Positions 1 through 44,076 are shown, counted from the stretch's first letter. The stretch is 64,000 nt of DNA from Hydrolagus affinis (GCA_012026655.1 JAAILG010001552.1:1-64000), one strand, 5' to 3'. The notes: generated from the letters alone by a model not told the origin. Made by a program: numbers and translations.

Positions 1-1687
1 GAGCGTTGTCATTTTGATCCAAGATAATCACATTCACTGCGGCGCTGCTGCTCAGTGGCGGGGACCCGGAATCCCGCGCCTGGACTTGGAGCTGAAAGTT
101 TTTGAGCTGCTCGTAATCAAAGGATCGCAGCGCGTAAACGTTCCCACTTTTGGTGTCAACACTGATATAAGAAAAGGACATCAGCTCCTGTATGTGATTC
201 TGCAGAATAGAATAGGAGACGTAAGAATTCTGGTCTGAATCAGGATCCAAAGCAGTAACTGATAGAATGGAGTCACCCGGAGCGTTATTCTCCATCACAT
301 ATGCGGTGTAGGAGGGCTGGTCAAACCGGGGCGCGTTGTCATTGATATCAGACACTGTCACGAGCAGAGTTTTATTTGACGAAAGAGGGGGAGATCCCGA
401 GTCCCAGGCTAATATGGATATATTATACGCATGAAGCTTTTCACGATCCAGTCTGTCACTTGTAACTAATTTGAACTGGTTCCCTGGCATCTTCTGCAAT
501 TTAAACGGAATATTCGTGGGAAGCTGACAGTTAACCTGTGCATTGAGTCCCGAATCCGCGTCTGTTACACTGATCACAGCGATCACAGTGCCTGGAGCAA
601 CATCTTCCTGTACGCTGCTGGACACTGAGGTGAGCTGTATCTTGGGAGCATTATCATTGACATCAATCAGTCGGAGGTGAACGCTGGAATGTCCTGCCAT
701 CGGCGGGCTGCCTTGATCCACAGCTTGTACATCGAATTCGTACACGGGTGATTTCTCAAAATCCAACACGCCTTCGACTGTAATCTCTCCCGATTTGGAA
801 TCCAAACTGAACAATTCCCGGACATGTAGCGAGGCACGGTTGCTAAAAGAATATGTCACCTCCGCGTTTGTTCCTTCGTCTGAATCCACGGCGTTAACCT
901 TGATGACAAAGGTCCCAGCTGGCGCGTTTTCTGTCAAACTCACTTTGTAAACCTCATGATCAAAGATTGGCACATTGTCGTTGATGTCCAATACCGATAT
1001 AGTGACCGAGGCTTTGCCGGTTCTTTGAGGGTTCCCCCCATCAACAGCCGTCAGCACCAGCTGAATTGTAGACTGCTCTTCCCGGTCTAAAGGCTTCTCC
1101 AGTAACAACTCGACAACCTTCATACCGCCGCTTCTCGTCCGCATTTTCAGGCCGAAGAAATCGTTCGCGCTGATCTGGTAAGTGCTCACTGTGTTGGCGC
1201 CCACGTCCGGGTCGTGCGCGCTCTCGAGAGGGAAGCGCGCTCCCGGCGCAATGTTCTCGGCGACGCGCAAGACGAACCCACCTTCTGGAAAACTAGGAGA
1301 ATTGTCATTGATGTCTAGGATCTCTACCTCTACGCGATACATTTCCAAAGGGTTTTCCATCAGGACCTCAAAGGAGATGAAACAAGTCGAGCTCTCGCCA
1401 CAAAGCCGCTCCCTGTCGATTCTTTCATTCACAAATAAAATCCCATTCTCCGGGTTTACCTCCAGGTACTGTTTTCCGTTATCGAAGACAAGGCGACATT
1501 TGCGAGCAGACAGCTCCCGTTTCTCAACTCCCAAATCCTCGGCGATGTTTCCGACCACGGAGCGAGGCTTCATTTCCTCCGGGATAGAGTAGCGAATTTG
1601 TGCAGAAACCAGGTGCGAGATACAGAGCAGAACAATAAAATGTTGGATCTTCTGAGACAATATCCAGCCTCTCCCTGGAGTCGCCAT
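1..1687 (-). CDS. Clustered protocadherin variable exon, intact as far as visible, truncated by the window edge (signal peptide, EC1-EC5)
   Basis: My translation from ATG 1687 gives MATPGRGWILSQKIQHFIVLLCISHLVSAQIRYSIPEE...IDRERLC...DINDNSPSF...LDREEQ...DVNDNAP...DQNDNA. It is open to base 1 and has cadherin PE/DRE/DxNDNxP motifs. It is probably missing from the ORF track because it has no stop inside the window. Confidence 0.95.
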   Translation of the reverse strand, partial: MATPGRGWILSQKIQHFIVLLCISHLVSAQIRYSIPEEMKPRSVVGNIAEDLGVEKRELSARKCRLVFDNGKQYLEVNPENGILFVNERIDRERLCGESSTCFISFEVLMENPLEMYRVEVEILDINDNSPSFPEGGFVLRVAENIAPGARFPLESAHDPDVGANTVSTYQISANDFFGLKMRTRSGGMKVVELLLEKPLDREEQSTIQLVLTAVDGGNPQRTGKASVTISVLDINDNVPIFDHEVYKVSLTENAPAGTFVIKVNAVDSDEGTNAEVTYSFSNRASLHVRELFSLDSKSGEITVEGVLDFEKSPVYEFDVQAVDQGSPPMAGHSSVHLRLIDVNDNAPKIQLTSVSSSVQEDVAPGTVIAVISVTDADSGLNAQVNCQLPTNIPFKLQKMPGNQFKLVTSDRLDREKLHAYNISILAWDSGSPPLSSNKTLLVTVSDINDNAPRFDQPSYTAYVMENNAPGDSILSVTALDPDSDQNSYVSYSILQNHIQELMSFSYISVDTKSGNVYALRSFDYEQLKNFQLQVQARDSGSPPLSSSAAVNVIILDQNDNA

Positions 1688-1902
1688 TAGTACTGGATTC
1701 AACCTCAACACAAATATACAGACGTCCTTTCTGTCTTACCTCAGTGCTTTAGTCCAGCAACACACTCTGTCTGAAACATATCACACTGATGGATTTAAAC
1801 TGAGTGTTAGAATTAAACGACCGTGTTTTTTCCTCTTGATCTGGGCCAGAAACTGCGAACGCAGTCACTGCTCAGCTTTCTCTTTGATTCTTTCCTGCGT
1901 CT

Positions 1903-2018
1903 GGTGAAGAGGGAGGGGTGATAGATCTCCAGGGCGCGTTTCAGCTCCTTATTGGTGGACAGCGACACAGGGAATGTCGGCCAATAACTACATTGAGCTT
2001 TCTTAAAGCGAGACTGTT
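1903..2018 (-). promoter_or_regulatory. Pcdh variable-exon promoter with CSE (CGCT box, putative CTCF site) and two CCAAT boxes
   Basis: Sense strand reads CCCTGTGTCGCTGTCCACCAAT, with CGCTG at 1964-1960, about 275 bp upstream of the ATG. The block aligns with 5583-5697 and 8333-8450. Confidence 0.85.
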
Positions 2019-2934
2019 TCCCAAAAGTCGTGGTTTCCAATGTGAGCCATGCCATTTATTGTTGAGCAACCCTCGGGCTTTAAACCATCGTTTCCTTTCT
2101 AATTATCCATTTTAACTTTAGAAAAACACACTGGCAAATAATCCTTGTGCCTAAAATATCTCAAGGTATCCTTTTTTGATTCACAACCATTATAATTGTG
2201 GATTAGGAATCGTGGAAGGGTGTTAAAGTATATTAATATATTACAAAATTGGGCGAACTGGAATGGGTTTAACTATTACGCATGGATTTGAGTTGCCTCA
2301 GTTAGGATATCTGGTCTGTAACGCATCTTATTCGCTGAAAGCTTCTTACAACTAAAAGCAAACGAGTTCCTTATTTTGATGCAGGTTTCAGCAGACATTA
2401 TCTGACAGTTTTACATTTCATCGTGCGTTTACATTCCAGTGCAAAGATTTCAGTCTGTAACATTTCAGTGGGATCCCACAAAGTTTGGAAAATGTACAAT
2501 TTTCTTCGGTAATTATATTCCAAATTCATACTTGCAAATCTGCAAATTCACGAACATATTGGCAGAAACAAAAATTATGAAAAGAAGCAGATCCAACACA
2601 ATCAAGTGTGAAAGCAAATGTAGTATCTTCTTGCAATAACTGTTGGTTTCTATGGTGCAGGCGAAGTTAGAACCATTCGTAAAAATATCCGTTTTGGACA
2701 ATCGTAGAATCCAGCCTAAGATCCAGTAAATCTACTGAAAACATCGATGTTAATGTTAATTGATTCATTGCACCGTCCAACAACACGGCGTTTAAAGATG
2801 CAGTCAATTGTGATCATGTATATTCAACTTTTAGAAATGACGTAAATATTTAGAAATTTTCACGTGAAATTTTCACTTCACATGGTCTTAGAAATAGGGT
2901 TGACCGCATAATAGATTGATTAATTAATACGCAC

Positions 2935-5353
2935 CACTTGTACGAATTGAGTCTGTGAAGGATTTGGTCAATTTGTTGTCGTTAACATTGAAGGGCAGGG
3001 TTGGATTACACGGCTGCAGAAAGAGAAATTCAGTATTGGTTGGTTCTGGAGATAAAGAAACCCTGAAGTTGTAAGCTTCGCGTTGGGAGCTTTCTTGACT
3101 CACTCCGGGGAAGTGGGGGGGTCTTCCTGGTGCCGATCTGCGATTCACAGCGTCCCGGGAAAATCTGCTCCCGAGGCACCAAGTCGTGTAGTTATGCCTT
3201 CGCGTGATATCTCTGTCTTGGTGACACTTCACGGCGACCAGAAAAATAATAGTTACGAGAAATACCAAGGAAGTGGACGCTAGAGTAATAATTAAATAAA
3301 AATTTAGGTCTGAGAAATGTTGAGGGTTTCCGGGCTGGTCACTGCGTTCAAGTGACGTTTCAGTCACATTGGGCAGGATTGCAAACAGTAAGGTGGCGGT
3401 GCATGACATGCTGGGTTGGCCGTTGTCCATCACCAGGATGATCAGACGTTGTGTAGGACCATCCCGTTCGGTGACCTTTCGCAGGGTCCTGACCTCTCCG
3501 GTGAGGCTTTCCAAGCGGAACAGACTGCGGTCGGTGGCGTCAATCAGCCGGTAGGAGAGACGGGCGTTCTGACCGGAATCTGCGTCAGCAGCCGACACCT
3601 TGGCGATCAAGTCACCCGGATGGGTTGACCGAGATGAGATTTTCACGGCGGCTGAGGCGTTCCTTGTGACAGGCGAGACAACAACCGGAGCGTTGTCATT
3701 CTGATCCAGGATAATGACATTGACCACGGCGCTGCTGCTCATTGGAGGAACTCCACCATCCTTGGCTTCGACTTTGATCTGGAAACGTTTCAGTTGTTCG
3801 TAGTCAAAGGAACGCAGTGCGTAAATAGTCCCACTTTGGGAGTTGATAGTAACATAAGGAGATGCACCTGGTATATGGCTCTCTTCCAGAACCGAATAGG
3901 AGATTTGGCCATTCTGATCCGGGTCAGGGTCTGCGGCTGTTACCGCAAATATGGAGGCGCCTGGGGCATTATTCTCCATCACATAAACATTGTAGGAGGA
4001 CTGCGTGAAGAGTGGAGCGTTGTCATTTACATCGGAAACTGACACCAAGATTGTTTTATTGGTTGAAAGGGGGGGAATGCCCGAGTCCCAAGATGAGATG
4101 GAGATGTTGAACCAGGGATCTGTTTCGTGGTCCAGCGCACCACTGGTAACCAATTGATATTTGCTCTTCGAAGATGTTTCAATTTTAAACGGGATGTTCG
4201 TAGGAACTTGGCAATGGACGTGTCCATTTTCTCCGGAATCTTGATCCTCTACACTGATCACAGCCACCACAGTTCCCAGCCCAGAATCTTCAGGGATCAC
4301 ACTCGACACGGAGGTCAATTTAATCTCGGGGGCATTGTCATTCACGTCGCTTATACCGACCAAAACCTTGGCATGACCTCCCAAGGGGTGTGGGCCATTA
4401 TCCACAGCTTGTACGTCAAGCTCGTAAATATCAGATTCCTCAAAATCCAGCAGATCTTTAACGGTAATCTCTCCGGTTTCTGGGTCGAGTTGGAATAGCT
4501 CGCTGACCCTTTGGGAAGCATGATTACTGAAGGAATATCTTACCTCCGCGTTCTGCCCTTGATCCGAATCAACCGCGTGGATTTGCATCACCCGGGTACC
4601 AACCGGTGCATTTTCCACCACGTTAGTTCTGTATATCTCCTGACCGAATATAGGGGCATTGTCATTGGCGTCCAGTACAGTGATTATAATCTGAGCTGTG
4701 CCAGATCTCGGTGGTATTCCACCATCAATGGCCGTTAGCACCAGCTGAAATTTCGACTGTTGTTCGCGGTCTAAAGGCTTCTCCAATAATAGCTCCGCAA
4801 TTTTTACGCCGTCGCTTCTGCTCTGCATTTTTAGGCCAAAGTAATCGTTGGAGCTGATTTGATAAGTATGGACGGCGTTGGTTCCCGTGTCCGGATCCTG
4901 AGCGCTCTTGAGGAGAAACCGCGCCCCCGGCGCTGTTAATTCAAAGATTTGCAGGGAAAACACACCCTTTGGAAAGCTCGGAGAATTGTCGTTTATATCT
5001 GTGATCTCCACTTCAACGCGGTATGTTTCCAAAGGATTTTGCACCACTACTTCCAAAGAAATGAAACAGGTCGGACTCTGTCCACAGAGCTGCTCCCTGT
5101 CGATTCTTTGACTGACAAATGCAATGCCATTTTCTAAATTTACCTCCAAGTAACGCTTCTCATTGTCAGAGACCAGGCGGAAGCTGCGAGCGAACAACTG
5201 CCGAACGTTCAATCCCAAATCTTCGGCGATGTTCCCAACAAAAGCTCCCCGCTCCTGTTCCTCGGGAATGGAGTAGCGAATTTGTCCGATCACCAGCTCC
5301 GGGAGCAGAAACAGGAGCGTGATAGCAGTCCCTCTGCTCAGCGCAATCGCCAT
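2935..5353 (-). CDS. Clustered protocadherin variable exon, intact (signal peptide, EC1-EC6, TM, variable cytoplasmic domain)
   Basis: ORF 2924..5398; likely start MAIALSRG at 5353; six cadherin repeats; TM FYLIITLASTSLVFLVTIIFLVAV; LSPEPTNTEFLFLQP motif. Probable phase-1 donor AGTG|GTGCGT at 2935/2934. Unspliced read-through stops at 2924. Confidence 0.96.
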
Positions 5354-5582
5354 GTTCTGGGTTCGAATGTGACGCAAGCGCATCAACATGATGCCCACAC
5401 CTTAAACGCTGTCTTTAGTATCTCATTACATATTTTATATTAACAAAAGTACATATATTTAGGCATCCACATGAGAGACAAGGAAGGACTCGCCTTAAGC
5501 GCTCTGTCTAAACATGGCTCCACAGCCCAAAGGCAGAGAGTAGACACTGTTCGCCTTCCTCTGTGGTTCTGCTCTGCCCTTT

Positions 5583-5697
5583 GTGAAGGGGAAGGGAGGG
5601 TAGATTTCTGGCAGCGTCTCTCCTCCTTATTGGCCGAGAGACACACAAAGAACTCTGACCAATAAATACTCGGAGCTTCTCTTAAAGCTAGACTGTT
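5583..5697 (-). promoter_or_regulatory. Pcdh variable-exon promoter block (CSE position reads CTCT rather than CGCT)
   Basis: Aligns with 1903-2018 (GTGAAG..GGAGGG..TAGAT..CTCCTTATTGG..ACACA..CCAATA..CTTAAAGC.AGACTGTT). Confidence 0.8.
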
Positions 5698-5705
5698 CTG
5701 CGTGT

Positions 5706-5742
5706 TTATATATATATATATATATATAGATATACATATATA
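5706..5742. repeat. (TA)n microsatellite
   Basis: Visible tatata run just upstream of the promoter block. Confidence 0.9.
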
Positions 5743-6199
5743 TGCCTAACCATATATTTATGCTGTATATTTTAACACCACAACATATAATGTTACCAAG
5801 ATATAATGCTTCTATAGTGACTTGTTATCATTCGATGCAAATAAAACGTTTCATTTAGATTTACTTTCATTCGATTGGTAGCTGCATTTTGATCGCGTTC
5901 GTGTATCAATTCACTCCCTACACATGAATTTGCCAGATATTACCTTCAGCAACAGTGACAATCAAATACAAACCTAACATTAAATCCACGCAGAATTCAT
6001 AGAATCAATTTCATTGTTGAATAATGGCGACCTACATCTGCGTGAGCAAGGAACAGAAGAAGGTACAAATATTCAGACAATTAACATTGGAGAAAACTGT
6101 CGTTCGTTAACTGGAATCCCCTCTGGCCCCCTTCAAGTATATCAGTACAGATTATCAGCCAAACTACATTTCGCAACTAATTAATTCTCCAATCTGTGA

Positions 6200-8121
6200 T
6201 TGTAACATTGGCGGTACACTTGAAGTAAAGTACGGTAGTATTGTCGTAAGGGTTCCAGGAAAAGAAATTCGCTCTTCGACGATTCTGGAGACAAGCAAAC
6301 CTTGTAGTGATAAGCTTCGGGAATTGGCACCACCTCACCTGTGTAATTTAACGCTTCCCTCTGTACGCGCTGACTACTTTAGGTGGTCCTTCGATTTGCC
6401 CCGTGCTCCACAGCAACAGCCGCTGAGTTGTCGCCTTGAAAACAAATTCCGACCTGTTGGCACTTGACGAGAAAGAGAGCGATCATCGTGAGGAGAAATA
6501 TGATTGACGTTGACCCCAAAGTGATCAAAAAAAATTCAGCTGCGAGAATCTTTGGGGATATTTAACTGAGTTACTGCTGTCAGATGATGCTTCAGTGAGA
6601 TTCGCCAAGATTGAAAGGACGATAGTGGCGATGCTAGACAGGCGGGGTTGTCCATTGTCCTTCACCGAGATGGCCAGATTGTGCTGGTGAGATCCTGGTC
6701 CGTAAATGCCTCGAACGGTCCTGATTTCTCCTGTGAACGGTTCGACCCGGAACAGGCTGGGGTCAGTGGCCTGGAGGAGCTGGTAATAAAGACGGGCGTT
6801 CTGCCCAGAATCAGCATCTGACGCCAAGACGGTGGCGATCAGGTCACCGGGGCTGGTTGCCTGGGACACTGTCGGTGACTCTTCTTGTCGATGGCGGAAC
6901 AATCACGGGAGGATTGTCACTCTCACTCTGGTACTGCTGCTCAGTGGAGAAGGAAATCCAGTATCCTGGGCTCCCAGATTGGTCTGGAAGTACTTCAGTT
7001 GCTCGTAATCAAAGGAAGTCAGGGCGTAAACATTCCCTCTTGGAGTTAATGGTGACATAAACGGACGCAGGCACAACGGTCACCTGGTCCTCGAGAATAG
7101 AATAGGAGACTTCGCCGTTCTTGTCCAAAGCAGACACGGAAAATATAGAGGCACCGGAAGTGTTATTCTCCATCGGGTACACAATGTAGGAGGATTGTGA
7201 AAACCGTGGGACGGTTATCATTTGCATCCAAAACCGTAACTCAAGACTGTTTTATTCATAGCGAGACGGGGTGTCCCCGAGTCCCGGACAACAACAGACA
7301 CATTGTACTTACAGATAGCTTGATCCAGTCTATCGCTAGTCATTAACTTGTAGCGGTTCTTCGAAGAGCGTTGGGGCCTGAATGAGATGTTACCCGGAAC
7401 AACAACAACTTGGGTTTCTATAGCGCCCTCCACGCCGAACAGCTTCTCAGAGCGCTTGTGAGTGTTGTTATTCACGTCCGTTATTTACACCCAAACCTTG
7501 GCACGTCCCATTTGTGCGGCCATATCCACAGCTTGCACTTCAAGCTTATGACTATTGGATGATTCGAAATCTAACGAGCCTCGAACTGTGACCTCTCCAA
7601 ATTTAACCCGAACAAGTCAAGAACTTTCTGGGTGCCTGACCTCGCCGTTTGAACCCTCGTCCAAATCGACAGCGTTGACTTTCACCAGCGATACACCTTT
7701 ATTTATTGAGGGTTCGAACTGATCTGATAAGTGTTGATCACCCCTGGCAGAATTAGCTCAAAGACTTGCAAGGGAAAGGCCTGGTTGGAAAAACTGGGTG
7801 AAAGAGTTTGCGAGCGTCAAGTCAGAGGAGATGAGACACCTTGCGCTTTGCCCACAGTGCTGTTCTCTGTCGACTCTCTCAACAAAACCCCATTCGCCAA
7901 ATTTACCTTCTGATACAGTATTGCCTCCATGGTCGGAGACCAGACGCAACCTGCGACCGGATAAATACCCGAAAATTCTCCCCAAAATCCTCAGTCATGT
8001 TCCAGACAAAAACTCCCAGCTCCTGTTCCTCGGGGGTGGAATGGCGAGTTTGTATGGTTACCGTCTCTGAGACTAACAGTAGAAGCACAAAAGTCGCCCG
8101 GTTGCTGAGTGCAATCGCCAT
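6200..8121 (-). pseudogene. Protocadherin variable-exon pseudogene with frameshifts, stops and internal deletions
   Basis: Fragments lie in different frames: MAIALSNRATFVLLLLVSE..STPEEQE, VERVDREQHCGQS, KVNAVDLDEGSNGEV, MENNTSGASIFSVSALD, ASDADSGQNARLYYQL...GEIRTVR and AYHYKVCLSPESSKSEFLFLEP. About 1.9 kb versus about 2.4 kb for intact exons. The low-coordinate boundary is approximate. Confidence 0.92.
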
Positions 8122-8332
8122 GTTTTGGATTCTGTTTTTTTTTCACGTTAACACATCAACATTTCCAATAATAATTCATTACTTTCCAGCCCCCTCATCT
8201 TTTTAGAATTTGCTTTCGGGTCTTCACCCAATATCTATCTGGGCTGTGCAGTAATTAGCCCTCAGCGGTCTGGCTCAACGTGGCTCCCGCAACTCCCACC
8301 AGACTCTGCTTTGTAATTCTGGCTCGCCCCTT

Positions 8333-8450
8333 TGTGAAGGGGAGGAAAGGGGGATAGATCTCTCGCAATGTTTCACCTCCTTGTTGGCACATAGCTACAC
8401 AAAGAGCCCACACCAATAGCTACACTGGGATTTTCTTAAAGCTGGAGTGT
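8333..8450 (-). promoter_or_regulatory. Degenerate Pcdh promoter block of the pseudogene
   Basis: Aligns with the other two blocks. The CGCT box reads AGCT and the proximal CCAAT reads CCAAC. Confidence 0.75.
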
Positions 8451-8809
8451 CTCAACATTTTGTTTCGCCCACAAAATACACAGTCAATCAATAAATCCAC
8501 TTCCACTATATTCTCTGAAGCGCATTGAGGCGTCTTAACGACGTGATGAGGCACTATAGCAAATGATCATTGTTATTAGCATTACATGTTGAAACTTCTT
8601 GCAAAATAAAGGTTGTTAATTGTATACAAAAATACAGTCAGATTTCACTAATAATGTAAATGCGAGCGGGGGAGGGGATCTGTCAATGTGTTCACTCATC
8701 ACATCTTTTAAAAATCTGTGTTTCATGTACAAATTTACTTGAATTAAATTCAACCTGTGTGTTATAGAACCAAAGTTACATTATCTCAACCAACATGTTT
8801 AATTAATAC

Positions 8810-9560
8810 TGACTTTGGGTTTGAGGTAAAGTTGGTGAGTTGTATGGGTTTCAGAAACCGAAACTTTTGGGTGATTCAGGAGACAAACCAATGATTCTAG
8901 ATCCTCTGATTCTAGGACGAGAGTTGTCTGACCAACTTCAGGGCATTGTAACGGTTCCCTTATCCCTTATTTGGGGGGAACTACGATTAAAATTATCCTC
9001 CGAATTCACTGCTTCACAACAGCAGATTTGCGCTTAATAACTGTTTGCCGCTATCGTCATCATATTGATCTCGAATCTCTCCAGTTCCCGGGTGCCAACA
9101 GGACAGTTTGCGCAGCTGTTGGGTTACTGAAAGAATATGTTAGCTCAGCTGTTAAACCCTGGAGGCTAATAGAAGTAAGGGCAGTGTTTTTTGATGTGGC
9201 TTTTAAAACGTTCCGAATTACGCGCATGACTCTAAGTGTGATCTCATCAGTGCGTTGCTGTGTCTCGGTTACTAATAGTTTTTTCTGCATACATTTTGAG
9301 GTCCTGCATTGAGATGATAACGACTGCTCTCAAAAGATTGCCATTTGGCACCAGTTATTTTAAACAAAAGTAGATTTCTGACCGTTCTACTAAAACAGAA
9401 TGTAGAGAGTATCTTCCCAGCTGCGTTTGTTATCATTGCTAGCCAGGAGATTGTAAATAGCTCCCACATAACTATAAGTTAATGTTGTCTAACTCCTCTC
9501 ATTCAAATTTCGGCTTCTTTCGTGCACCGAAGAACTAGCATGGGTATAGGTAGCAATTCG
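8810..9560 (-). pseudogene. Highly decayed, internally deleted protocadherin variable-exon remnant
   Basis: Minus-strand fragments: LASNDNKRSWED (cf. EC1 LVSDNEKRYLEV), AELTYSFSN...TGEIR (EC3-like, across a frameshift), CCCEAVNSEDNFNRSSP and IGLSPESPKS..FLKP (cytoplasmic motif). Boundaries are approximate. Confidence 0.6.
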
Positions 9561-9937
9561 GGTTGTGGAATGAAAACGATATTATAAAGTTAAATACATT
9601 GGAAATAACTAGAAATACTATCAAGGCGACTTTACTTCTGAGAATACAGAGCATGATATCAGATATTTATCTCATTTATCTTTGTTCCTTTTTGCCAACT
9701 AAGTATTTAGCATTTTGCATCTTTGCAGTCCTTTGAAATGCTACCCTGGACTGTAACATTGATAGTTTATATTATACTGCGTCTGTAACACCGATAGTTA
9801 CTTTATACCGTTTAGTTTAGTTTATTCTAGAAAACAGAAGAGATCATTGAAAAGGCCAATCATTGTAGGGTGTTCAGAATTATCTTCCAATTCACGCTGA
9901 GGGAGAAGTTTACACTAATCGATCGCTCCTTCTTTTA

Positions 9938-9969
9938 GCAGTAAGGTTAGTGGCCACTAGGCGGCGAAG
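9938..9969 (+). promoter_or_regulatory. Putative CTCF binding site, reverse to Pcdh transcription
   Basis: TGGCCACTAGGCGGCGAAG at 9951-9969 closely matches the CCASYAGRKGGCR core. GCAGTA at 9938 resembles the upstream module. Confidence 0.7.
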
Positions 9970-12240
9970 ACCATATATTTTTAAATGAAATCCAGGAATT
10001 CCCAGAACAGCGAGAGAAGATATCACGGATTTCAAAAGGGTTCAGCGGTTGAATTAGACAATAAACTCCCCAAACGGATGGAATTATGATTTTATCTGTT
10101 GCTTTTAAAACAGTAGCAAGCACCGCCACAGCCTGTGCCGCCTCTTCCACATCACAGCTTATTCCTCGTGGCACACTATAATAAGAATATTCCTTCCATT
10201 TTCACACAGCGCCATTCAAGACTTAAAGCGCTTCACTGGATGTACAGTAGAGGGTATTGACTGTATATTTCGTGTGATTTGTTTTCCAAAGAAATACATA
10301 AATTCAGCGGTTTAGGTCGTGGTTTAGTCGTATGTCGTATTTTGACTGTAAAATGGTTCAGGATAATTGATATTTTGTCTGATCAAGGCCGCAACTATCT
10401 TTTATCGAGGAGTTCAGCCAGACCATTTTTGACCTTTCGGTGCCTACCGATATTTCAATACATTTGCACCAGTGCAGAACTCTGTCATCAGCTGAAGGAT
10501 CTTATGCGTAATGTTACATATTTTCTTGTTCGTTGCAGATGGGAACAGATTAGCGCCTACTCTGAAAACGATGTGGTTCTCTGACCAACGTACAATTCTT
10601 AGATTAATTCTGAATGAAGAAGATCATTTAGAAATGTCGGGAACTAAACTTCACGTCTTACTGGCTGCATAAGCTGCTGCGTAAAAACATGGCGCATTTA
10701 TTGTATAGTTTTGTATGGGGGGAACTGAGAGGACAAACAGGATTCCGGCTGTAAACTAACTGTGTCCCAACAAAGTATGTATCGCTGTCGTGGTCTTTGT
10801 CATAATATATTCAGTGTTTAGAGTAAAATCAGACTACAGGTTAGCCAGATGGATGTGAAATGGAGGTAGAATATTCTTACTGTTATCCGGGATATTATTG
10901 ATACCTGATTAGAGATCTATAACTTTATTTACATAGCTTTAATGGATTCAGTATCATGACTGTGTGTTAGTCTCGTTTATCTCAAATCAACCTTTACTCA
11001 AAAAAAATTGGAAACAAAGTCTGAAACTGTAAGAATATTAATGTTTACTTTTCAATAAGAACCTGAATGATTTTATGTTCAACAAGGGCACTAAGTGGCG
11101 ATTTTATCGACCATATTGATGCAAGAAATGAGCAGTAGAATAGGAGCCAAATTGACCCAAATAATAATGCAAATAATAATAATAATTGACATCCCAGAAT
11201 ATATTGTAAAGTTGATTGACTGTGCGTGTTGTGGTAAGAAATATTTAAACGATAACAAGATTCCTCCTCGCCCTCCAAATAATTGCACTAAACACGTCGT
11301 AAGACGGAAATGTTCACATTGATTAAGAACATTTATTGAAGCAAAACCAAAGTGCATCCTACAAAATAACAATCGCCATGTTTCCATTTCATTCCAGGTT
11401 GAGCAATGGAAAACATAAAGAAGCGTACAGGTAACTTCTCACATGTTATTACAGCAAGTTCATTCCAGAAGATCAGGTCAACCTTTACATTATTCTTTTG
11501 TTCAGAGTTCAGATTTAATTTGTAGACTCAATAATTCTTCCTTTGCCTTTCCAATATTGTGTGATGCCCACACAAACACTAATAGATAGGATGATTTCTT
11601 GCAGGTATTGCCTTACATTCCATTGGCTTCAAACTATTCATTTGTAGTTGTCCTAAATGTTCCCGAATTTAAGATAATTCATGTTTACACCGGAAAACAT
11701 GGAGCACAAATTAAAACTTTCCATTCATTGTACATCAGAATAACAAAGCGGAGCTATTTCATTTAAACATTAACAAAATAACAAGGATTCAACTTTAAAT
11801 TAACAAAATAATTCCTTCAATTGGAAATCACATTGTCAGCTGGAAAATAAATTTTGTTTGTTTTTTTGTCCAGAGTAAATTATTTTATTTTGCAATATTA
11901 TGTGTATCAATTCAACCAATTCACTTCTAATAAAGTTTTAGTATAACAATCGCAAAGTAATGATCCAAATATCTTTATTGGATGGTATTCCAAACACAGG
12001 GCATTCTTGGGAAACAGTGGCAAAAATAATAGCTTCCAAATACATGCAGCTGTACTTTCATCTATCAAAGTGTTTCTTGGTAAATTGTTACATGATTTAC
12101 ATTTTAGATTTACGTAATTAGCGAAATGCAATTTAGCATACAGTATTGTTTGAAGGTATGCCTGGATTTTTTTTGAAAAAGTTGACACAAGCTATATGGA
12201 GTCTTCAAATAATTACAATAAGTATCCAACATATTCAACA

Positions 12241-12578
12241 TAATAATAATATAATAATCCTTGCATTTGATATTGCGCATTTCACATCTTATCGACATCC
12301 CAAAGCGCTTCACAGAATATCCTGTAAAGTGAATTGACTGTATATTTGTGGGCGAATCGCAGCAGCCAATTGTGCACAGCTGTGTCCCACAAACAGACGT
12401 GGATTGAAATGACCAATTTTATTACTGTGGTTTGTTTTGGATGGATTATTATTCGGTGTGTGGAGTAAGGAAACTTACTCAAGGTTTCGCCCTGACCTGG
12501 ATTTGAACAAAGATCTCCCCAGCTTGGTCTCCCCAGCTTGCAAGACAAGTGCTCTAACCACTAGACCACAGGAGCTCC
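12241..12578 (-). mobile_element. Full-length tRNA-derived SINE with L2-like tail
   Basis: A/B-box-like head, TGTTTGTGGGACAC.GCTGTGCACAATTGGCTGC body, TGTGAAGCGCTTTGGGA...TATCAAATGCAAGGATTATT tail. Many copies occur in the window. Confidence 0.9.
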
Positions 12579-12932
12579 CGACATGCCAGTGCCCCCCACC
12601 CCTACTCACCCCCTCCCCACCACCCAAAAAAAAACGCTTCACAAATGAAGCAACTCGACTTCCTAATTAATTACATTTTCCTTACAATCAGGGCATTTTC
12701 ATAATGCATGTTTGTGATCGTTGTGATCAACAAGAAGTTGAAGTCCCGTCTTCTTTTCGATTTAACTTGTATTTCTATTCTTCTGGCCTTATCCCCCCGC
12801 CCTTGCTCGAGGTTGATTTATTAGGTTCAGTAAATTAATCGATGAGTCTCTGGTGGTAAGTATGACCGGGTTTCCTCTGTACATTTGTGTTCAGCAGTTT
12901 CTCTGGAAGGAACCTTGGTCCATGTCATGGTG

Positions 12933-12982
12933 TCAGAAACTTGATTCGCCAGGTCCTAGAGATAGTGACGTGTCACTGTGGT
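12933..12982 (-). CDS. Candidate terminal constant exon (coding part) of the solo Pcdh gene
   Basis: Strong acceptor ttttctctatcatttttcttattcag|AC. The phase-1 frame reads (D)HSDTSLSLGPGESSF*. AATAAA lies at 12822-12817. Predicted from splice signals and position only. Confidence 0.45.
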
Positions 12983-14027
12983 CTGAATAAGAAAAATGAT
13001 AGAGAAAATCATTCTCGTTAGTATTGATGCATTAACTTGTCAGTAAAAAAAATTATTCTCCCAAACCAAGTGGTGGTTTTCACGTCTGTTGTACATGATA
13101 TTGTAAAAACAAAATACAATCAAAATTTCAATTTAAAATGATATCGGTAGATTGTGTAACACCATTACTCTGCCATGAGGATGCTCTCGTTATATCTATG
13201 TCATAACAATTGATTCTTGATCTTATCTTCTTTATGCTGCAGTATGAATTTATTTCGATTCATGCTATACTTACAACACCGCCCCCATTTATGGCATCAC
13301 AAGAACCAAACATGGAGCTGCATTATTTGACTCTCACTGATTGTAAAGACCACATGTGCTTCATTCCTCAAATTCAACCAGATAATTTCTTTTCTGTTCC
13401 TTGTTGAATTAATGCATCCCATGGGTTTGTTTTTCTTTTGGGAACTGTTTCCAGGGCATCACCAACACATTTGTTAATGACACTGATAAATGGTTTGGCT
13501 TTAGATCACTTTCTATCTGTTCAGTGATCAATATATTAGTTTCAAAGAGGTCTGAAATTATCTCCAGTTCTCTCCGTCTCTCGCTGCAAAGCTTTCTCTC
13601 TGAACATGTATTGACTTGGTCAGTTCTATATGCATTATTGATGCTTTCTGATCTTTTAGTCACGTTTCTCTTTTCAATACAAGTTACTGCATATTTCATA
13701 CATTCATTAAAAAAAATACCATTGGCGCCATAGCAGACGGTGTTCATCATGTTGATTTACAGGATCTAACCAACTAAACAAACAAAAGTATTCAAAGAGC
13801 ATGAAGACAATTTGAAATATTATATATTTTTTAAAATTAAAATTGCCTTAATTTTGAGTGTGAGCTGCAAAATCAATTTCTTATGATTGTGAATATGTAT
13901 AATTATCGCTAGATTGTTGTGACGCAAATATTGACACGACCAGGTTCTCACATTTTTATTGAATTTTTTTTAATGAAACCAAGGCAGGAATTCCTAAAAG
14001 AAAAAAATGAAGGTACACATTTGAGGG

Positions 14028-14046
14028 CTGCCACAAGGGGGCGCTA
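14028..14046 (+). promoter_or_regulatory. Putative CTCF binding site, reverse to Pcdh transcription
   Basis: CTGCCACAAGGGGGCGCTA, a near-consensus core, sits in very AT-rich unique DNA. Confidence 0.78.
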
Positions 14047-15242: not shown

Positions 15243-17404
15243 ACCGTCCGTCTTACTTCTTCACAAAGGTTTGCCCATTTTTTTATTTCCACAATTCTAC
15301 TACCTAGTGTGAGGGACTCTCACAGTTGGTGCAAGGCGGAGAAGAAGAATATGTATAACAAGTCCTTTTGGGGAAATCGGGTTTCTTCTTTGTACATCTA
15401 ACCAAGAACCGCCCGCCTCTTCTGTGAAGTGTCTTCATGTGATGAACTTTATAAAATGAGCAAAATGCTGTTAAGTATCTCTCAGTATTTTCCCAACATT
15501 CACAGATAAATATCCTAACGCATAAGTCAAGGATAACATGCATGTAGTGCAATATGGATTCAGCTACTCAAATACTATGCAAAGTCTTTTTTTTAAGTAT
15601 CACAGGGCAATATTGCTGCAGACTGCCATTTTTCTGTTGAAACTGTTGTGCTCAATGATAAAATTCTTGCATTCAATCATCTCACTAAACTAGTACAACA
15701 ACAACTGACTGCAATGGAGTAATCTGAACCACCCTCTCCTCCCATCCTCTGAGGGTGGCAGGTTGGGCATCAAACAGTGGCGGTGTGGCTGATGTCCTAC
15801 TTGTGGTGAGCATCTCCCAATGGTATTCCTCCTAACGTGTCTCAGAGTGTGATGTGTGAAATCTGTAAACAGAGAAATGTCCATGGTGTTGCTGCAATTT
15901 AATTTTTACAATAAGTCAATCAAACAGTCAAGCATTCAAACAATCAGGCAATCAATCAATCAAGCTATGTTCAACATGGGATTTGCACCTGTTTTATGTG
16001 TTTTGAAGTTACAAGTTATGCAGTGAATCTATTGCATTGTTTCCAATGCAAAGTATTTCCTACCTACCATAAACATTTTTTCGACTCATTGAAGTATTTT
16101 TAAAATAAAGAATTCTATAGTTTGGCTCTACTTTCCTTTCTTAGCAGTGTTTTTTTTGCTCACTCTCATTTCTTGGAAAGAAAAAATATAAATTACTCAT
16201 CAACTCAAACTTGCCATTGAATTCGAGGTACGGTTTTTCAAAAACGTTTATGAATATTTGTCTCATGTGGACATCCTTTACCAGCACAAGCTGCATTCAT
16301 TTACATATGAATATAATATTCTGTTTGATCTGAGCCGTTTTGTAAATATAAATCTACATCATCGTTTGACATAATTATAAATGTTCTGTGAAGCAATACG
16401 TTTCAGAACAATGCAGCAATATAAGAGCAGTAATGATGATTACGTTCGCTCCAGTTATTAAACCAGGAATAACTGGTTTAGCACTGAAACAGTTTGTAAA
16501 GGACAAAAAAAATGTACAATGCAATAAATTCCCACTTTCAACATTTTCAATTAATTCAAAACATTACAAGAGATGAAACATTACAGCAATGAAAATGATC
16601 AGTTCTATCACCCCCATATTTAATTGAAATAGTGCACCTTATCCACCTCAATTTTAAGTGTCTGCTCATGGCTGCAGATTTTGATAGTTGAGGAAAGCAA
16701 TGGGAGAGCTGTACTCAATAATGCTTTGTTCTCGCAGAAAGAAAAATTAAAGTGGGGGAGAAAGAATTTAACTGATTAAAGATCGTACCTTAAAAAGGAA
16801 CGAGTGACACAATACAGCGCTGCCCTATCTAAGTATTAAATACCTAGGCCTAGAAACCATCTATTTGATGCCTAGAATCCAATCAAGCCAGTTGTAAGAC
16901 ACTCAAAGGGAATTTAGACAAAATTGGCCTGCCTTCAGGCTTGAAGGTCACAGCAGGAAAACATGGTATTATTTTGCAGTGTTGGAAAAAAAAACCGCAC
17001 ATTTTGTTTTTAAATCATTATATATTTGCATCTGCGTGTAAACACTAAGTGAATTATTATCGTGAGTTTTTTTTTAAAGGGAAGCAGCATGTATTTCCAA
17101 GAGTTAAAGCATATGATTGATGAACTAATGACTGTGCAGTTGAGGTAACAGGGGGACAAATATGAGAATCAAATAATCAGGCCCTTATAAACCCAGCAAT
17201 TATTGTTGAAGAGCAATAGAATTACAGATAAGCTCTATCATCCTCTGCCATCCACTTTCAACAGTTCTGTACTGCCCACTGTTGGTGAAGGTAAAGTCAA
17301 CTCATCAGGCAGTTTGAAGCTGAAATATTCGGTGCCAAGCACATTGACAAGTAGGAAATTACCCTTTTGGTGCCTGATCAGATATTGAACTAGGGAGAAA
17401 AATA

Positions 17405-17719: not shown

Positions 17720-18080
17720 GGAGCTCCTGTGGCTTAATAGTTACAGCACTTGTCTTGCAAGCTGGGGAGACCAAGCTGGGGAGACCTGGGGAGACCAAGC
17801 TGGGGAGACCTGTGTTCGAATCCAGGTATGTCAGGGCGAAGCCTTGGGCGAGTTTCCTTACTCCACATGCCTAATAATAATCCGTCCCAAAAAAACCACA
17901 ATAATAAAAACATTGAAAATTGGTCTTTTCAATCCACGACTGTTTGTGGGACACTGCTGTGTGCAATTGGCTGCCGTGAATATACAGTAATTCACTTTAG
18001 TATATTCTGTGAAGCGCTTTGGGACGTCAATAAGATGTGAAAAGTGCTATATCAAATGCAAGGGTTATTATTATTATTTA
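17720..18080 (+). mobile_element. Full-length tRNA-derived SINE with internal tandem expansion
   Basis: GGAGCTCCTGTGGCTTAATAGTTA...GTTCGAATCC head, repeated (G)CTGGGGAGACC units and an (ATT)n tail. ATCAT on both flanks is a possible TSD. Confidence 0.92.
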
Positions 18081-18934
18081 TATCATCGCTGTACGTGGGA
18101 CGTAACTGGCTCAGACAAGTTTCCTTCATATTATGCAAACAAATAAGAATTTAAACACATCAAAGTAATTAATTTGAAACTTTTGTGGCATTTCATGATA
18201 AGGCACTTCATTAAATGCAAATGTTATTTTATTATGATTATGCAAATTAATGTTTGTGCGAATTCGCAATGCTCTTTGCAGTACCAATGGTAACCAATGA
18301 GTGGCAGCATTGCCCTCTCAATCTGTATTAATGCAACAGAATATCTGGGCTGTTTCTCATTGATGGGTGATTCAAACATCCAATTTCTTGGTGTTACCTG
18401 AATTTGACCGCAGTCCCACCTGCCCATTGTCCATAACACTCTCCAATTCAGCAGAGAACCAGACACCAACTTTAATACTCTTTTTAGTTATCACTTGCTC
18501 ATCACATAATCCACACAAGTGAACAGATGTGGTGGGCAAAATCTAAAATACATGATACAGATTAATTGCATTCAAAGTCTAATTTGGGTTGGCTCCAAAT
18601 TTGGAACATCTGTGTAAACATGGCAACTCATTTGAATGCTGCAACTAGGGATGCGCAGTGCCGTTTGGAGCATTATCCCGTTGAGATGGATTCTTGGTTT
18701 ATTATTAATAAAAGCGTGCTTGTTTACTTGTATATTCATTACACTTCAAAGCAATCTGAGAAATTGCATGCCAGGTGGCCGAGTTTCCACACTTCAAACC
18801 ACTGGTTTATTTCTCTACCACATTAAAGGATAAGACCTTTCGAACATTTAACCCTTTTTCTCACCAGCATAACATCTGTGCAGATGATTCTTCTTCATTA
18901 TGGGTGCTGATAAATACTTCATACAATATATAGA

Positions 18935-34979: not shown

Positions 34980-35600
34980 AACAACAAAAATAAGAACAAC
35001 AAAATTACATTTATAGAGCGCCTTTCACATCGGGAGGACATCCCAAGCCACTGAACAGTCACGATGGGACCTGAGCAAGCGAAAGAGACAGTGCAGTGGG
35101 GAAAGACAGGACAGAGTTAGGAGGGGAGGGACAGAGTTGGGAGGGCAGCAGAAGGCACAGTCGAAGAGGAGAGTCTTGAGGCTGGCCTTGAAGGAGAGGG
35201 AGCAAGGCAAACGGAGTGTAGTTTGGAGTGCCAGAGTGTGGGAGCAGAGAGGCTGAAAGCCCATCCACCGATGATAGGGTGGGTCACGTGGGGGACATGG
35301 AGCAGGCTGGAGCCAGCTGAACGGAAGGGGCAGGGAGGATCATAGGGGGACAGCAGTTTGGAGAGGTAGGGGGGCAAAGCAGTGAATGGACTTGAAGGTG
35401 AGAACAAGGATCTTGAATTTGATCCTCTGGGGGATGGGAAGCCAATGGAGCCAGGCAAGGGTGGGAGTGATGTGGTCGCGGAGTTTGGGACGGATGAGGA
35501 AATGAGCTGCAGAGTTCTGGATGATCTGCAGCTTGCGAAGGGAAGAAACAGGAAGGCCGACGAGGAGCGAATTTCCGTAATTGAGCCTTGATATAATAAA
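34980..35600 (-). mobile_element. 5'-truncated L2 LINE (ORF2 C-terminus, 3' UTR, (TTG)n tail)
   Basis: AETLVHAFIISRLNYGNSLLVGLP..LQIIQNSAA..DHITPTLAWLHWLPIPQRIKFKILVLTFKS, then AFSLSAPTLW and SFKASLKTLLF in shifted frames. These are typical L2 motifs. Confidence 0.92.
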
Positions 35601-41083: not shown

Positions 41084-43618
41084 CTCACTACATTTATTGC
41101 CCCCAATAGTTGAAGCATCCAACGTCTGGTCCCTCCAGCCAGTCGCGTATGGGTTGGATGCCTTGACGTTATTCCTAGAAGTGGAGGAACTGTAGGGTTT
41201 GAGAAACATTAAGTCTGTCTTAGCTGATTCTGGGCTCAAACACACTTTGTAGCAGTAAGTTTGATTAAGTGACCCACTGCCTCCCACCTCCATGCGGCTC
41301 GGCGGGACCTTGGCGCTGGCTGGCATCTGGAAGTTCACATGGGAGTTATTCAACACATCTCCCGAACGCTTGCGTTTGAAACAACAGCTGCTGCCTTCGC
41401 TGGAGCAACAGGCGCCGAGAGAGCAGACGCGGTGGCCATGGGCACTGTGTCTCTCCTTGTGGCACTTGACTGAAACCAAAGTGATGATGGCCACCAGGAA
41501 TATGAAGGAGACGGAGCCCAAGGAGACAATCAAATACAGGTTGAAATTGGACAGGTACTCGGTGTCTTTAGGTTTGTCGCTCAAGTCGGAGAAGACTTCT
41601 GGTACACTGTCCACTATGGACACCACGATGGTCACTGAGCTGGAGAGCGGAGGTTGTCCATGGTCCATCACCAGGATGACCACCCTTTGCTTGAGGGCAT
41701 CTTGATCCTCCAAGAGGCGCACTGTCCTGATCTCGCCGCTGAGGGGCGCCACGCTGAACAGATCCGGCTCGGCGCTTTGGAACAGCTGGTAGGAGAGCCG
41801 CCCGTTCTGCCCGGAATCCACGTCGATGGCGACCACCTTGGTGACCAGGTAGCCGGGATCTGCGGAGCGCGGGACCATCTCGGTGGCGTGGGAACCGTTC
41901 CGGGGCAACGGGGAGGTGACCTCGGGCGCGTTGTCGTTCTGATCCAAGATGATCACATTGACCGTCACGTTGCTCTGGAGAGAGGGGAAGCCGGCATCCT
42001 GGGCTTGAACTGTCACTTGGAAGTTCTTGAGTTGCTCAAAGTCAAAGGAGCGCAGCGCGTACAGGTTGCCGGTGTTCAGATTGATGGAGACATAAGTGGA
42101 GATGGGGGTGCCCCGTATCTTGCTGTCCAAAATACAGTAGGATACATAGGCATTCTGATCGATATCTGGATCGAAGGCAGAAACCGTGCAAATTGAAGCT
42201 CCCGGAGCGTTGTTCTCCGTCACATAGATGGTGTAGGAAGGGTGGGCAAAGAGAGGCGCGTTGTCGTTGACGTCCGAAACCCGCACTAAGATGGTTTGGT
42301 TGGTGGAGAGGGGTGGGGAGCCCGCGTCCGTGGCCGTGACCGTCACGTTATACTCCCGGACGCTCTCTCGGTCCAGAAAATCGTCGGTGACCAACGTGTA
42401 ATAGTTCTTGAAGGACGACTGCAGTTTGAAAGGCAGATTCTTGGCCATGTGACAGCGGGTCTTCCCGTTTTCGCCCGAATCCCGGTCGGTCACGCTGATC
42501 AGAGCGATCACCGTGCCCGGGAATGAATCCTCGCGAACCGGACTGGACAGGGAGGTCAACACGACCTCGGGCGCATTGTCATTGACATCGATGATCTCCA
42601 CCACCACAGTGCAGTGCACGGCCGCCGTGTAAGGACCTCTGTCATTGGCTTGCACGTAGATCTCATACACACTGGCTTCTTCGTAATCCACCACGCCTTT
42701 GACCCTGATCTCGCCAGTTTGTGGCTCCACACTGAACAGCTGGCGAAGCCTGCCTGGCGCATGGTGACTGAAGGAGTAGGTGATCTCTCCATGGGAGCCT
42801 TCGTCCAAATCAGTGGCGTTGAGTTTGATCACCACCGTGTTTCTGGGCGCATTTTCCACCAGGCAAACCGTGTAGACCGTCTGGTCGAAGACGGGCGCGT
42901 TGTCGTTGACATCCAGGACCGTGACAATCACCAGCGCGGTACCCGATCTCTGCGGGACGCCGCCGTCGATCGCCATCAGGATCAACTTGTGCGCCGCCTG
43001 CTGTTCCCGGTCCAGGGATCTCTCCAGCACCAACACCGGGAATCGGTTGCGTTCGCTGCGGGTCTGTACCTCCAGAGCGAAGTGCGTGTTGGAACTGAGT
43101 TGGTAGGTTTGGAGGGAATTGGCGCCCACATCTGGATCGCGCGCCTTCTCGAGGGGGAACCGGGCTCCCGGGCTGACCGACTCGGCGATCTCCAAACGGA
43201 ATTCACGCCAGGGGAAACTGGGGGAATTGTCGTTCACGTCCAGTATCTCCACCTCGACGCGGTAGAGTTCCAGAGGGTTCTCAATGACAATTTCCAGGTG
43301 TAGGAAGCAGCTCGTTCGGACCCCGCACAGCTGCTCCCTGTCTACCTTCTCGTTCACGAACAGGATCCCGTTTTCCAAATTCACCTCCAGGTACTGGGTC
43401 TTGGGACCAGGGACTATGCGGAACCGACGCGCCGATAGTTTCTTCACGTCCAGTCCCAAATCGTCCGCGATGTTCCCAACGAACGCGCCGTGTTTGAGTT
43501 CTTCGGGAATGGAATAGCGAATCTGTCCGGTGATGAAATCCCACACGCACGAGAAGACAATCAGAACGATAACTTGCCGTCTCACCCAGGTACTTTTCTG
43601 TGCATTAGACAACTCCAT
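41084..43618 (-). CDS. Solitary protocadherin variable exon (signal peptide, EC1-EC6, TM, Cys-rich cytoplasmic segment); PCDH10/alphaC2-like, probably the cluster's Pcdh-delta gene
   Basis: ORF 40988..43618 has six cadherin repeats, TM LYLIVSLGSVSFIFLVAIITLVSV and YCYKVCLSPESAKTDLMFLKP. A consensus phase-0 donor GAG|GTGAGT lies at 41084/41083 (845 codons). The subfamily name is inferred from isolation and position. Confidence 0.96.
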
Positions 43619-44049: not shown

Positions 44050-44076
44050 CCTATTGGAGGACAGCGGCAGGGCGAG
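44050..44076 (-). promoter_or_regulatory. CSE (CGCT box) plus CCAAT of the solo Pcdh promoter
   Basis: Sense CGCCCTGCCGCTGTCCTCCAATAG has the same CGCTGTCC.CCAATA arrangement as the promoter at 1950-1970. It is about 445 bp upstream of the ATG. Confidence 0.8.

Follow-up and report, generated by a model that had tools for sequence, protein, structure and literature searches.

The first 64,000 nucleotides of a contig from the chimaera Hydrolagus affinis (GCA_012026655.1 JAAILG010001552.1:1-64000, hereafter the window), which has a total length of 65,259 bp and belongs to a fragmented assembly of 1.11 Gb, carry clustered protocadherin (Pcdh) genes on the minus strand, and the proteins closest to them come from Callorhinchus milii. 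At the 3' end of one of these genes, Pcdh epsilon1, two strong core motifs for the architectural protein CTCF are found at 14028..14046 and 9951..9969, both on the plus strand, i.e. reverse to the direction of the genes. This motif pair is real and does not result from chance. We see roughly an even chance that it acts as a tandem loop-extrusion barrier, which would stop cohesin coming from the side of delta and epsilon1, loop to forward sites behind the delta gene and separate epsilon1 from the array of epsilon2-17.

Both motifs had been proposed in an earlier sequence-only reading of this DNA, and they were found at the claimed places on the plus strand, 4077 bp apart. When the window was scanned with a count matrix that approximates the CTCF core of JASPAR MA0139.1, they ranked first and second of all positions. 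The motif at 14028 scores 24.9 bits (p=1.5e-9), which is the highest value in the approximately 264 kb of cluster DNA that were scanned, and the one at 9951 scores 18.1 bits (p=3.9e-7) with a single mismatch at a strongly conserved position. Dinucleotide shuffles of the local DNA (n=200) gave a mean of 0.06 sites of at least 18 bits versus the two observed; two such sites occurred in 0/200 shuffles, and 20 bits were reached in 1.5%. As genomic control, 30 further contigs of the same genome were sampled in 60 stretches of 10 kb each (598.8 kb). These contained 33 sites of at least 12 bits, 10 of at least 15 bits and two of at least 18 bits, but neither a site of 20 bits or more nor two sites of at least 15 bits on the same strand within 4.5 kb. 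The expected number of pairs with at least 18 bits is 0.0015 per 64 kb, or 0.019 at the upper rate limit. Neither motif is placed inside a repeat, both are unique DNA, and a high-copy SINE-like repeat (short interspersed nuclear element; 12231..12587, no strand assigned) is situated between them.

The gene in front of the pair, previously described as a 'solo' gene, could be identified. Its variable exon (41084..43618, minus strand, 845 codons, donor GAG|GTGAGT) shares 94.5% identity with ABV59319, 'protocadherin epsilon1', across 848 positions, versus 61-64% with two delta-like proteins, and an assignment to delta or alpha was ruled out; delta itself is found on another contig. The solo gene is thus epsilon1 and is followed by epsilon2 and epsilon3, therefore the CTCF pair is located inside the named epsilon subcluster. 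The previously suggested terminal exon at 12982 is supported by the acceptor TTTTTCTTATTCAG and by a reading frame that continues from the donor at 41084. Its coding part (12956..12982, minus strand, TTVTRHYL*, first AATAAA at 12822) lies between the two CTCF motifs and shares 7/8 residues with TTLTRHYL, the end of C. milii XP_042196038. An alternative short terminal exon at 15842..15862 (minus strand, ISHITL*) lies outside the pair and can be compared with the tail ISHITI of C. milii XP_007900211. These terminal exons, which code for tails of 6-8 residues and not for constant regions, are found 25-28 kb downstream and both fit C. milii RefSeq models, whereas the GenBank entry for epsilon1 is a single exon that continues through the donor instead of splicing; other short tails occur in elasmobranch epsilon1 models. 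Among the matches listed, no delta-type constant exon was found in the window, and in a genome search the tail of delta turned up on a different contig. In a single-cell RNA run of a relative (27% read, without positive control), reads fell on repeats only and none on the 12982 exon, which is neutral either way.

The position of the pair coincides with a border in descent. Epsilon1 and its six elasmobranch orthologues form a slow clade in a quick tree built from 48 ectodomain sequences, with one orthologue cluster in each elasmobranch sampled (n=6). This clade joins the delta of this genome, six bony-vertebrate proteins, for which 'delta-like' is a label given in this analysis, and the first gene after the mu constant exons with a support of 98 in the Shimodaira-Hasegawa-like approximate likelihood ratio test (SH-aLRT). 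In the same quick tree, epsilon2-17 represent a clade of their own (SH-aLRT 99). Hence, the earlier claim of a one-gene subcluster must be split. By name it does not hold, because the genes of the window match epsilon1, epsilon2 and epsilon3 and the epsilon names of C. milii extend to at least epsilon17; own constant exons are not found for epsilon1 among the matches listed either. By descent it stands, as epsilon1 belongs to a separate, unexpanded delta-like lineage. This suggests that the published epsilon subcluster can be divided into two units, namely a delta-like gene that is conserved and an array that has expanded, and the pair sits at the border between them.

Candidate partners for the pair were found on the delta side. 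Delta is located on contig C11015, with an exon from approximately 8570 and the last constant exon at 17914-18168. The end of C11015 and the end of the window contig share an overlap of 171 identical bases with the correct orientation, and the join also agrees with the known delta-epsilon order. In coordinates extended from the window, forward CTCF motifs in unique sequence lie upstream of delta at 86.9 kb (18.9 bits) and behind its last constant exon at approximately 69.2, 66.7 and 66.0 kb (18.5, 15.1 and 11.9 bits), the first two of the latter being 2.5 kb apart. Provided that the contigs are joined in this way, the pair is flanked by convergent forward partners on the delta side and by divergent promoter elements, the conserved sequence elements (CSEs), of the array. 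Judged by their motifs, the two forward sites behind delta are better convergent partners than the CSE of epsilon1. Between delta and the array, a stretch of 80 kb that was picked for comparison after the data were seen contains six sites of at least 15 bits (five of them outside repeats) versus 1.3 expected (P=0.003 and 0.012, respectively), and the approximately 264 kb of cluster DNA on 10 contigs contain five sites of at least 18 bits versus 0.9 expected (P=0.002).

From this arrangement a working model can be drawn. CTCF would bind both reverse motifs at the 3' end of epsilon1, and cohesin would then form loops of 53-59 kb between the forward pair behind delta and the reverse pair, with epsilon1 alone inside. 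A longer loop of approximately 73-77 kb may extend to the forward site upstream of delta. The switch from reverse to forward orientation at 9.9 kb would shield the CSE-bearing promoters of the array from enhancers on the side of delta and epsilon1, in the way HS5-1b shields Pcdh-beta.

The forward direction of the array promoters was deduced from their CSEs. From the cluster loci fetched we collected 24 distinct CGCTG-N4-CCAAT elements, which represent a subset of the promoters and may include some alleles. In all 23 array CSEs, a TG[CT]A[GA] module is found 12-13 bp before the CTCF core register with CGCT as its 3' end (chance 1.2% per site), and because of this upstream module we read them as forward. 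The forward register outscores the reverse one in 22/23 array CSEs, although these paralogues are not independent. The pair thus points away from the array promoters, as had been claimed. In mammals, CTCF binds a stretch upstream of the CSE (PMC3333863), and in an IL3 insulator oligonucleotide the spacing of the upstream module is likewise 12 bp (PMC12885311). The chimaera CSE can be described as a 45-bp module (e.g. window 1951-1995, minus strand), in which TG[CT]A[GA] is followed by facing ATTGG/CCAAT boxes around a GTCGCTG box. CTCF may read it through the modules at its ends, or a CCAAT factor may be its main reader. Contig C31987 carries forward CTCF-like motifs of 16.0 and 13.3 bits at 3681 and 6916, at the same place in two epsilon variable exons; they recall exonic CTCF-binding sites (eCBS) and were not seen at 10 bits or more in the other exons scanned.

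Nevertheless, several points weigh against the barrier at the epsilon1 3' end. The boundary is a prediction from motifs that were computed with an approximate matrix. The 171-bp overlap is LINE-like (long interspersed nuclear element), so that the contig join is likely, not proven. The cores of the array CSEs score low (mean -2.8 bits), which makes the use of CTCF at these promoters uncertain. Furthermore, no site of 9 bits or more exists in the 9.6 kb from the last mu constant exon to the next gene, and no reverse pair was found behind this other delta-like gene after the mu constant exons. Conservation adds a further point. A list of 16 public runs included none for CTCF or cohesin occupancy or for insulation, and no RNA run listed as containing the sequence; none of the 16 shared half of the sequence words, and three had organism labels. 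The interval 9000-13800 was compared with organisms A, B and C, organism C being without coverage of the 9951 site. A contig of organism A covers 9000-12266 and shows 91 differences in 3267 bases (approximately 2.8% divergence). No difference falls into 9939-9982 among the 40 of 216 differing positions listed, all with the change of organism A, so that the 9951 core appears unchanged in A, which is uninformative at this divergence (P of approximately 0.6 by chance for 19 bp). The AGCAG at 9937..9941 (plus strand), which resembles a CTCF upstream module, lies 12 bp before the 9951 core and accounts for the start at 9938 in the earlier reading, is not conserved, because position 9938 has A instead of G in both organism A and organism B; this module is thus changed in two relatives.

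If the barrier reading is wrong, the two motifs could simply be ordinary CTCF sites without any special role for epsilon1, serving general chromatin organisation or gained in this lineage. Sites of at least 15 bits occur every 60 kb in the controls, and strong sites also turn up singly elsewhere in the cluster, such as the one in a mu intron, both of which would fit. However, the controls contain neither a same-strand pair nor a site of 20 bits, and the position of the pair coincides with the border of two lineages; we regard this explanation as rather unlikely. The mu site mentioned is a reverse CTCF motif of 19.2 bits in unique DNA (contig C1296:38343), where it occupies the final intron of the mu constant region; it is a candidate anchor for the promoters of the epsilon/mu array.

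The sequence-only reading had instead placed an HS5-1-like enhancer between the motifs, which would loop over 30-34 kb to the epsilon1 promoter. The sequence agrees with a tandem pair in reverse orientation closing the epsilon1 unit, but the proposed anchor at 44062 is the weakest CSE found, and the 30-34 kb loop rests on it. The CGCTG-N4-CCAAT element does exist on the minus strand at 44066; it is a remnant (44053..44066) with the CGCTG box and CCAAT, without upstream module or core match. A role as directional CTCF site was not confirmed: in the CGCT register its score is -15.7 bits, and the best values reached are -5.4 bits forward and -4.1 bits reverse, so no direction is preferred, and it is the only one of the 24 elements that lacks the TGCAG-type upstream module. 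The delta promoter element is degenerate as well (-24.1 bits). Mammalian alpha-c2, beta1, gamma-c4 and gamma-c5 are described as devoid of a CSE in PMC7811963, and therefore a weak anchor would not be unusual for a delta-like gene; according to the same source, mammalian alpha-c1 anchors by a single CSE, which favours the enhancer loop, as does the 13.3-bit forward motif within the epsilon1 exon. It is likely that the epsilon1 CSE is a minor anchor or none.

With regard to an enhancer between or beside the motifs, CpG is kept at 9.0-11.5 kb (observed/expected 0.72-0.89 in 5/5 bins, compared to a median of 0.30), as in unmethylated regulatory DNA, but this richness is continuous with the array and its decayed copies. 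The HS5-1 element contains a non-canonical neuron-restrictive silencer element (NRSE; PMC2926608), whereas no NRSE at up to three mismatches was found between the chimaera motifs in a scan that does not reach non-canonical NRSEs. Of the likeness itself, the two tandem reverse CTCF motifs stand, as motifs. The spacing of 4077 bp does not agree with the approximately 0.7 kb of HS5-1, and neither does the position, with epsilon1 on one side and epsilon2 on the other; the interval between the motifs contains a SINE as well as a terminal exon. Taken together, we consider an HS5-1-like enhancer that loops to the epsilon1 CSE unlikely. The CpG observed/expected ratio is mostly 0.7-0.96 over the array (1-11500) versus approximately 0.3 in the epsilon1 intron (15000-40500), and the drop is located between the two CTCF motifs. 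In the epsilon1 intron, at window 25299 (minus strand), there is an NRSE-like match with two mismatches to the motif of PMC2926608, which may be chance.

A more far-reaching scenario is that epsilon1 represents a second delta-like unit, which lost its constant exons and its CTCF-type anchor and would now stand alone in a nested loop, formed by the forward pair behind delta and the reverse pair before epsilon2, outside stochastic promoter choice; we regard this as improbable. Finally, that both motifs are chance matches unbound by CTCF is very unlikely given the p value of the 14028 motif and the local shuffles, even though the mismatch at 9951 affects a highly conserved position and column-shuffled matrices matched the window at 18 bits or more in 2/20 trials.

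Some candidates around the pair were rejected. A decayed exon as the origin of the 9951 motif was rejected, since no profile match extends over it. The flanks of the two motifs showed no homology to each other, or to the site in the mu intron, beyond one 11-bp match (E=0.07). The CTCF-like motifs at 35142, 35621 and 57516 were set aside, since they lie in repeats with 13, 2 and 120 copies in 600 kb, respectively. Weaker forward motifs are found on the minus strand at 17270..17288 (14.1 bits, unique intron DNA) and, within the epsilon1 exon, at 42989..43007 (13.3 bits), the latter in GC-rich coding DNA where it may be chance. Lesser reverse motifs comprise four of 12.1-13.1 bits within or near delta and one of 12.2 bits in the epsilon1 exon.

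The remaining genes of the window lie beyond the pair. The orthologue of Pcdh epsilon2 (2924..5353, minus strand) is 83% identical to ABV59320, its best match of 10 references. This gene is intact and has a degenerate CSE without CGCT box (window 5635-5680, minus strand), just behind the predicted boundary, comparable to mammalian beta1, which lacks a CSE. The epsilon3 orthologue (1..1687, minus strand) runs off the window and is 86% identical to ABV59321, again the best of 10 references; its CSE has the CGCT box at 1964 and the upstream module. Between epsilon2 and the pair, an epsilon pseudogene with frameshifts and deletions (6244..8121, minus strand) and fragments of a decayed epsilon variable exon (8823..9160, minus strand; nhmmer E 1e-11 and 1e-8) were detected.

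In the wider cluster, the first gene after the mu constant exons (contig C1296:55257-57788) belongs to the delta/epsilon1 clade and has no CSE. Hence, two subclusters seem to begin with a delta-like gene. The walk along the cluster stopped at a contig end without neighbour, before the 3' end of nu. Contigs C84795 and C43944, a weak lead to the nu 3' end whose membership in the cluster is only a candidate one, contained nothing above 10.9 bits. Contigs C2377 and C5155, whose tails resemble motifs of non-clustered Pcdh, were used as extra controls only (best 12.1 and 10.2 bits). A nu constant exon (contig C15154:7703-8017) contains a long (A/V)QRD tetrapeptide repeat, which exceeds in length that of the query protein, from a ray.

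The question addressed by these findings is the age of CTCF-directed Pcdh promoter choice, a mechanism that has been worked out in mammals. In the open-access literature we found no CTCF map of a cartilaginous-fish Pcdh cluster. The chimaera locus supplies named coordinates and a predicted boundary between the delta-like epsilon1 and the expanded array; the boundary mechanism itself, if true, would be the known one. Under the improbable scenario of epsilon1 as a second delta-like unit in a nested loop, and if sharks and rays, as well as bony vertebrates behind their delta, possess the same boundary, the division of the Pcdh cluster by CTCF into a fixed and a stochastic compartment would predate the split of the jawed vertebrates.

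The closest known locus is that of the elephant shark, in which, as reportedly described by Yu et al. 2008, the clustered Pcdh genes are arranged as delta, epsilon, mu and nu. The chimaera agrees in gene order and has one-to-one orthologues of epsilon1, 2 and 3 (95, 83 and 86%). However, the elephant shark epsilon1 was deposited as a single exon, whereas the chimaera gene and two RefSeq models have short distal terminal exons. Epsilon was reported to be without orthologue in bony vertebrates (PMC2764143). Generally, the arrangement resembles CTCF insulated neighbourhoods or boundaries within topologically associating domains (TADs), with convergent pairs around a gene and a switch from reverse to forward at the border, here predicted from the DNA sequence only; an orientation code of CTCF is also described for TAD borders of the skate (PMC10115646).

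Among the mammalian elements, the CTCF-binding site array in the super-enhancer for Pcdh beta/gamma (HS5-1bL, HS18-22) likewise consists of tandem reverse sites with kilobase spacing, but it sits at the 3' end of the whole cluster, unlike the chimaera pair. In mammalian Pcdh-alpha, the reverse sites HS5-1a and HS5-1b flank an enhancer approximately 30 kb behind the alpha constant exons and are spaced like CSE and eCBS, by approximately 700 bp (PMC7811963); HS5-1b sets the loop direction (PMC6881428) and insulates Pcdh-beta in mice (PMC7087399). The likeness consists of two tandem reverse CTCF motifs followed by an array without constant tail and with forward CSEs, as HS5-1b stands before Pcdh-beta. 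In contrast, the chimaera motifs are 4.1 kb apart and have a terminal exon between them, where the mammalian sites follow the last constant exon at a distance of 30 kb, and the chimaera motifs close one delta-like gene with a doubtful promoter anchor rather than a subcluster of several promoters. The pair is hence no member of the HS5-1 elements, from which it differs in spacing and position, and in its predicted working it is HS5-1b-like.

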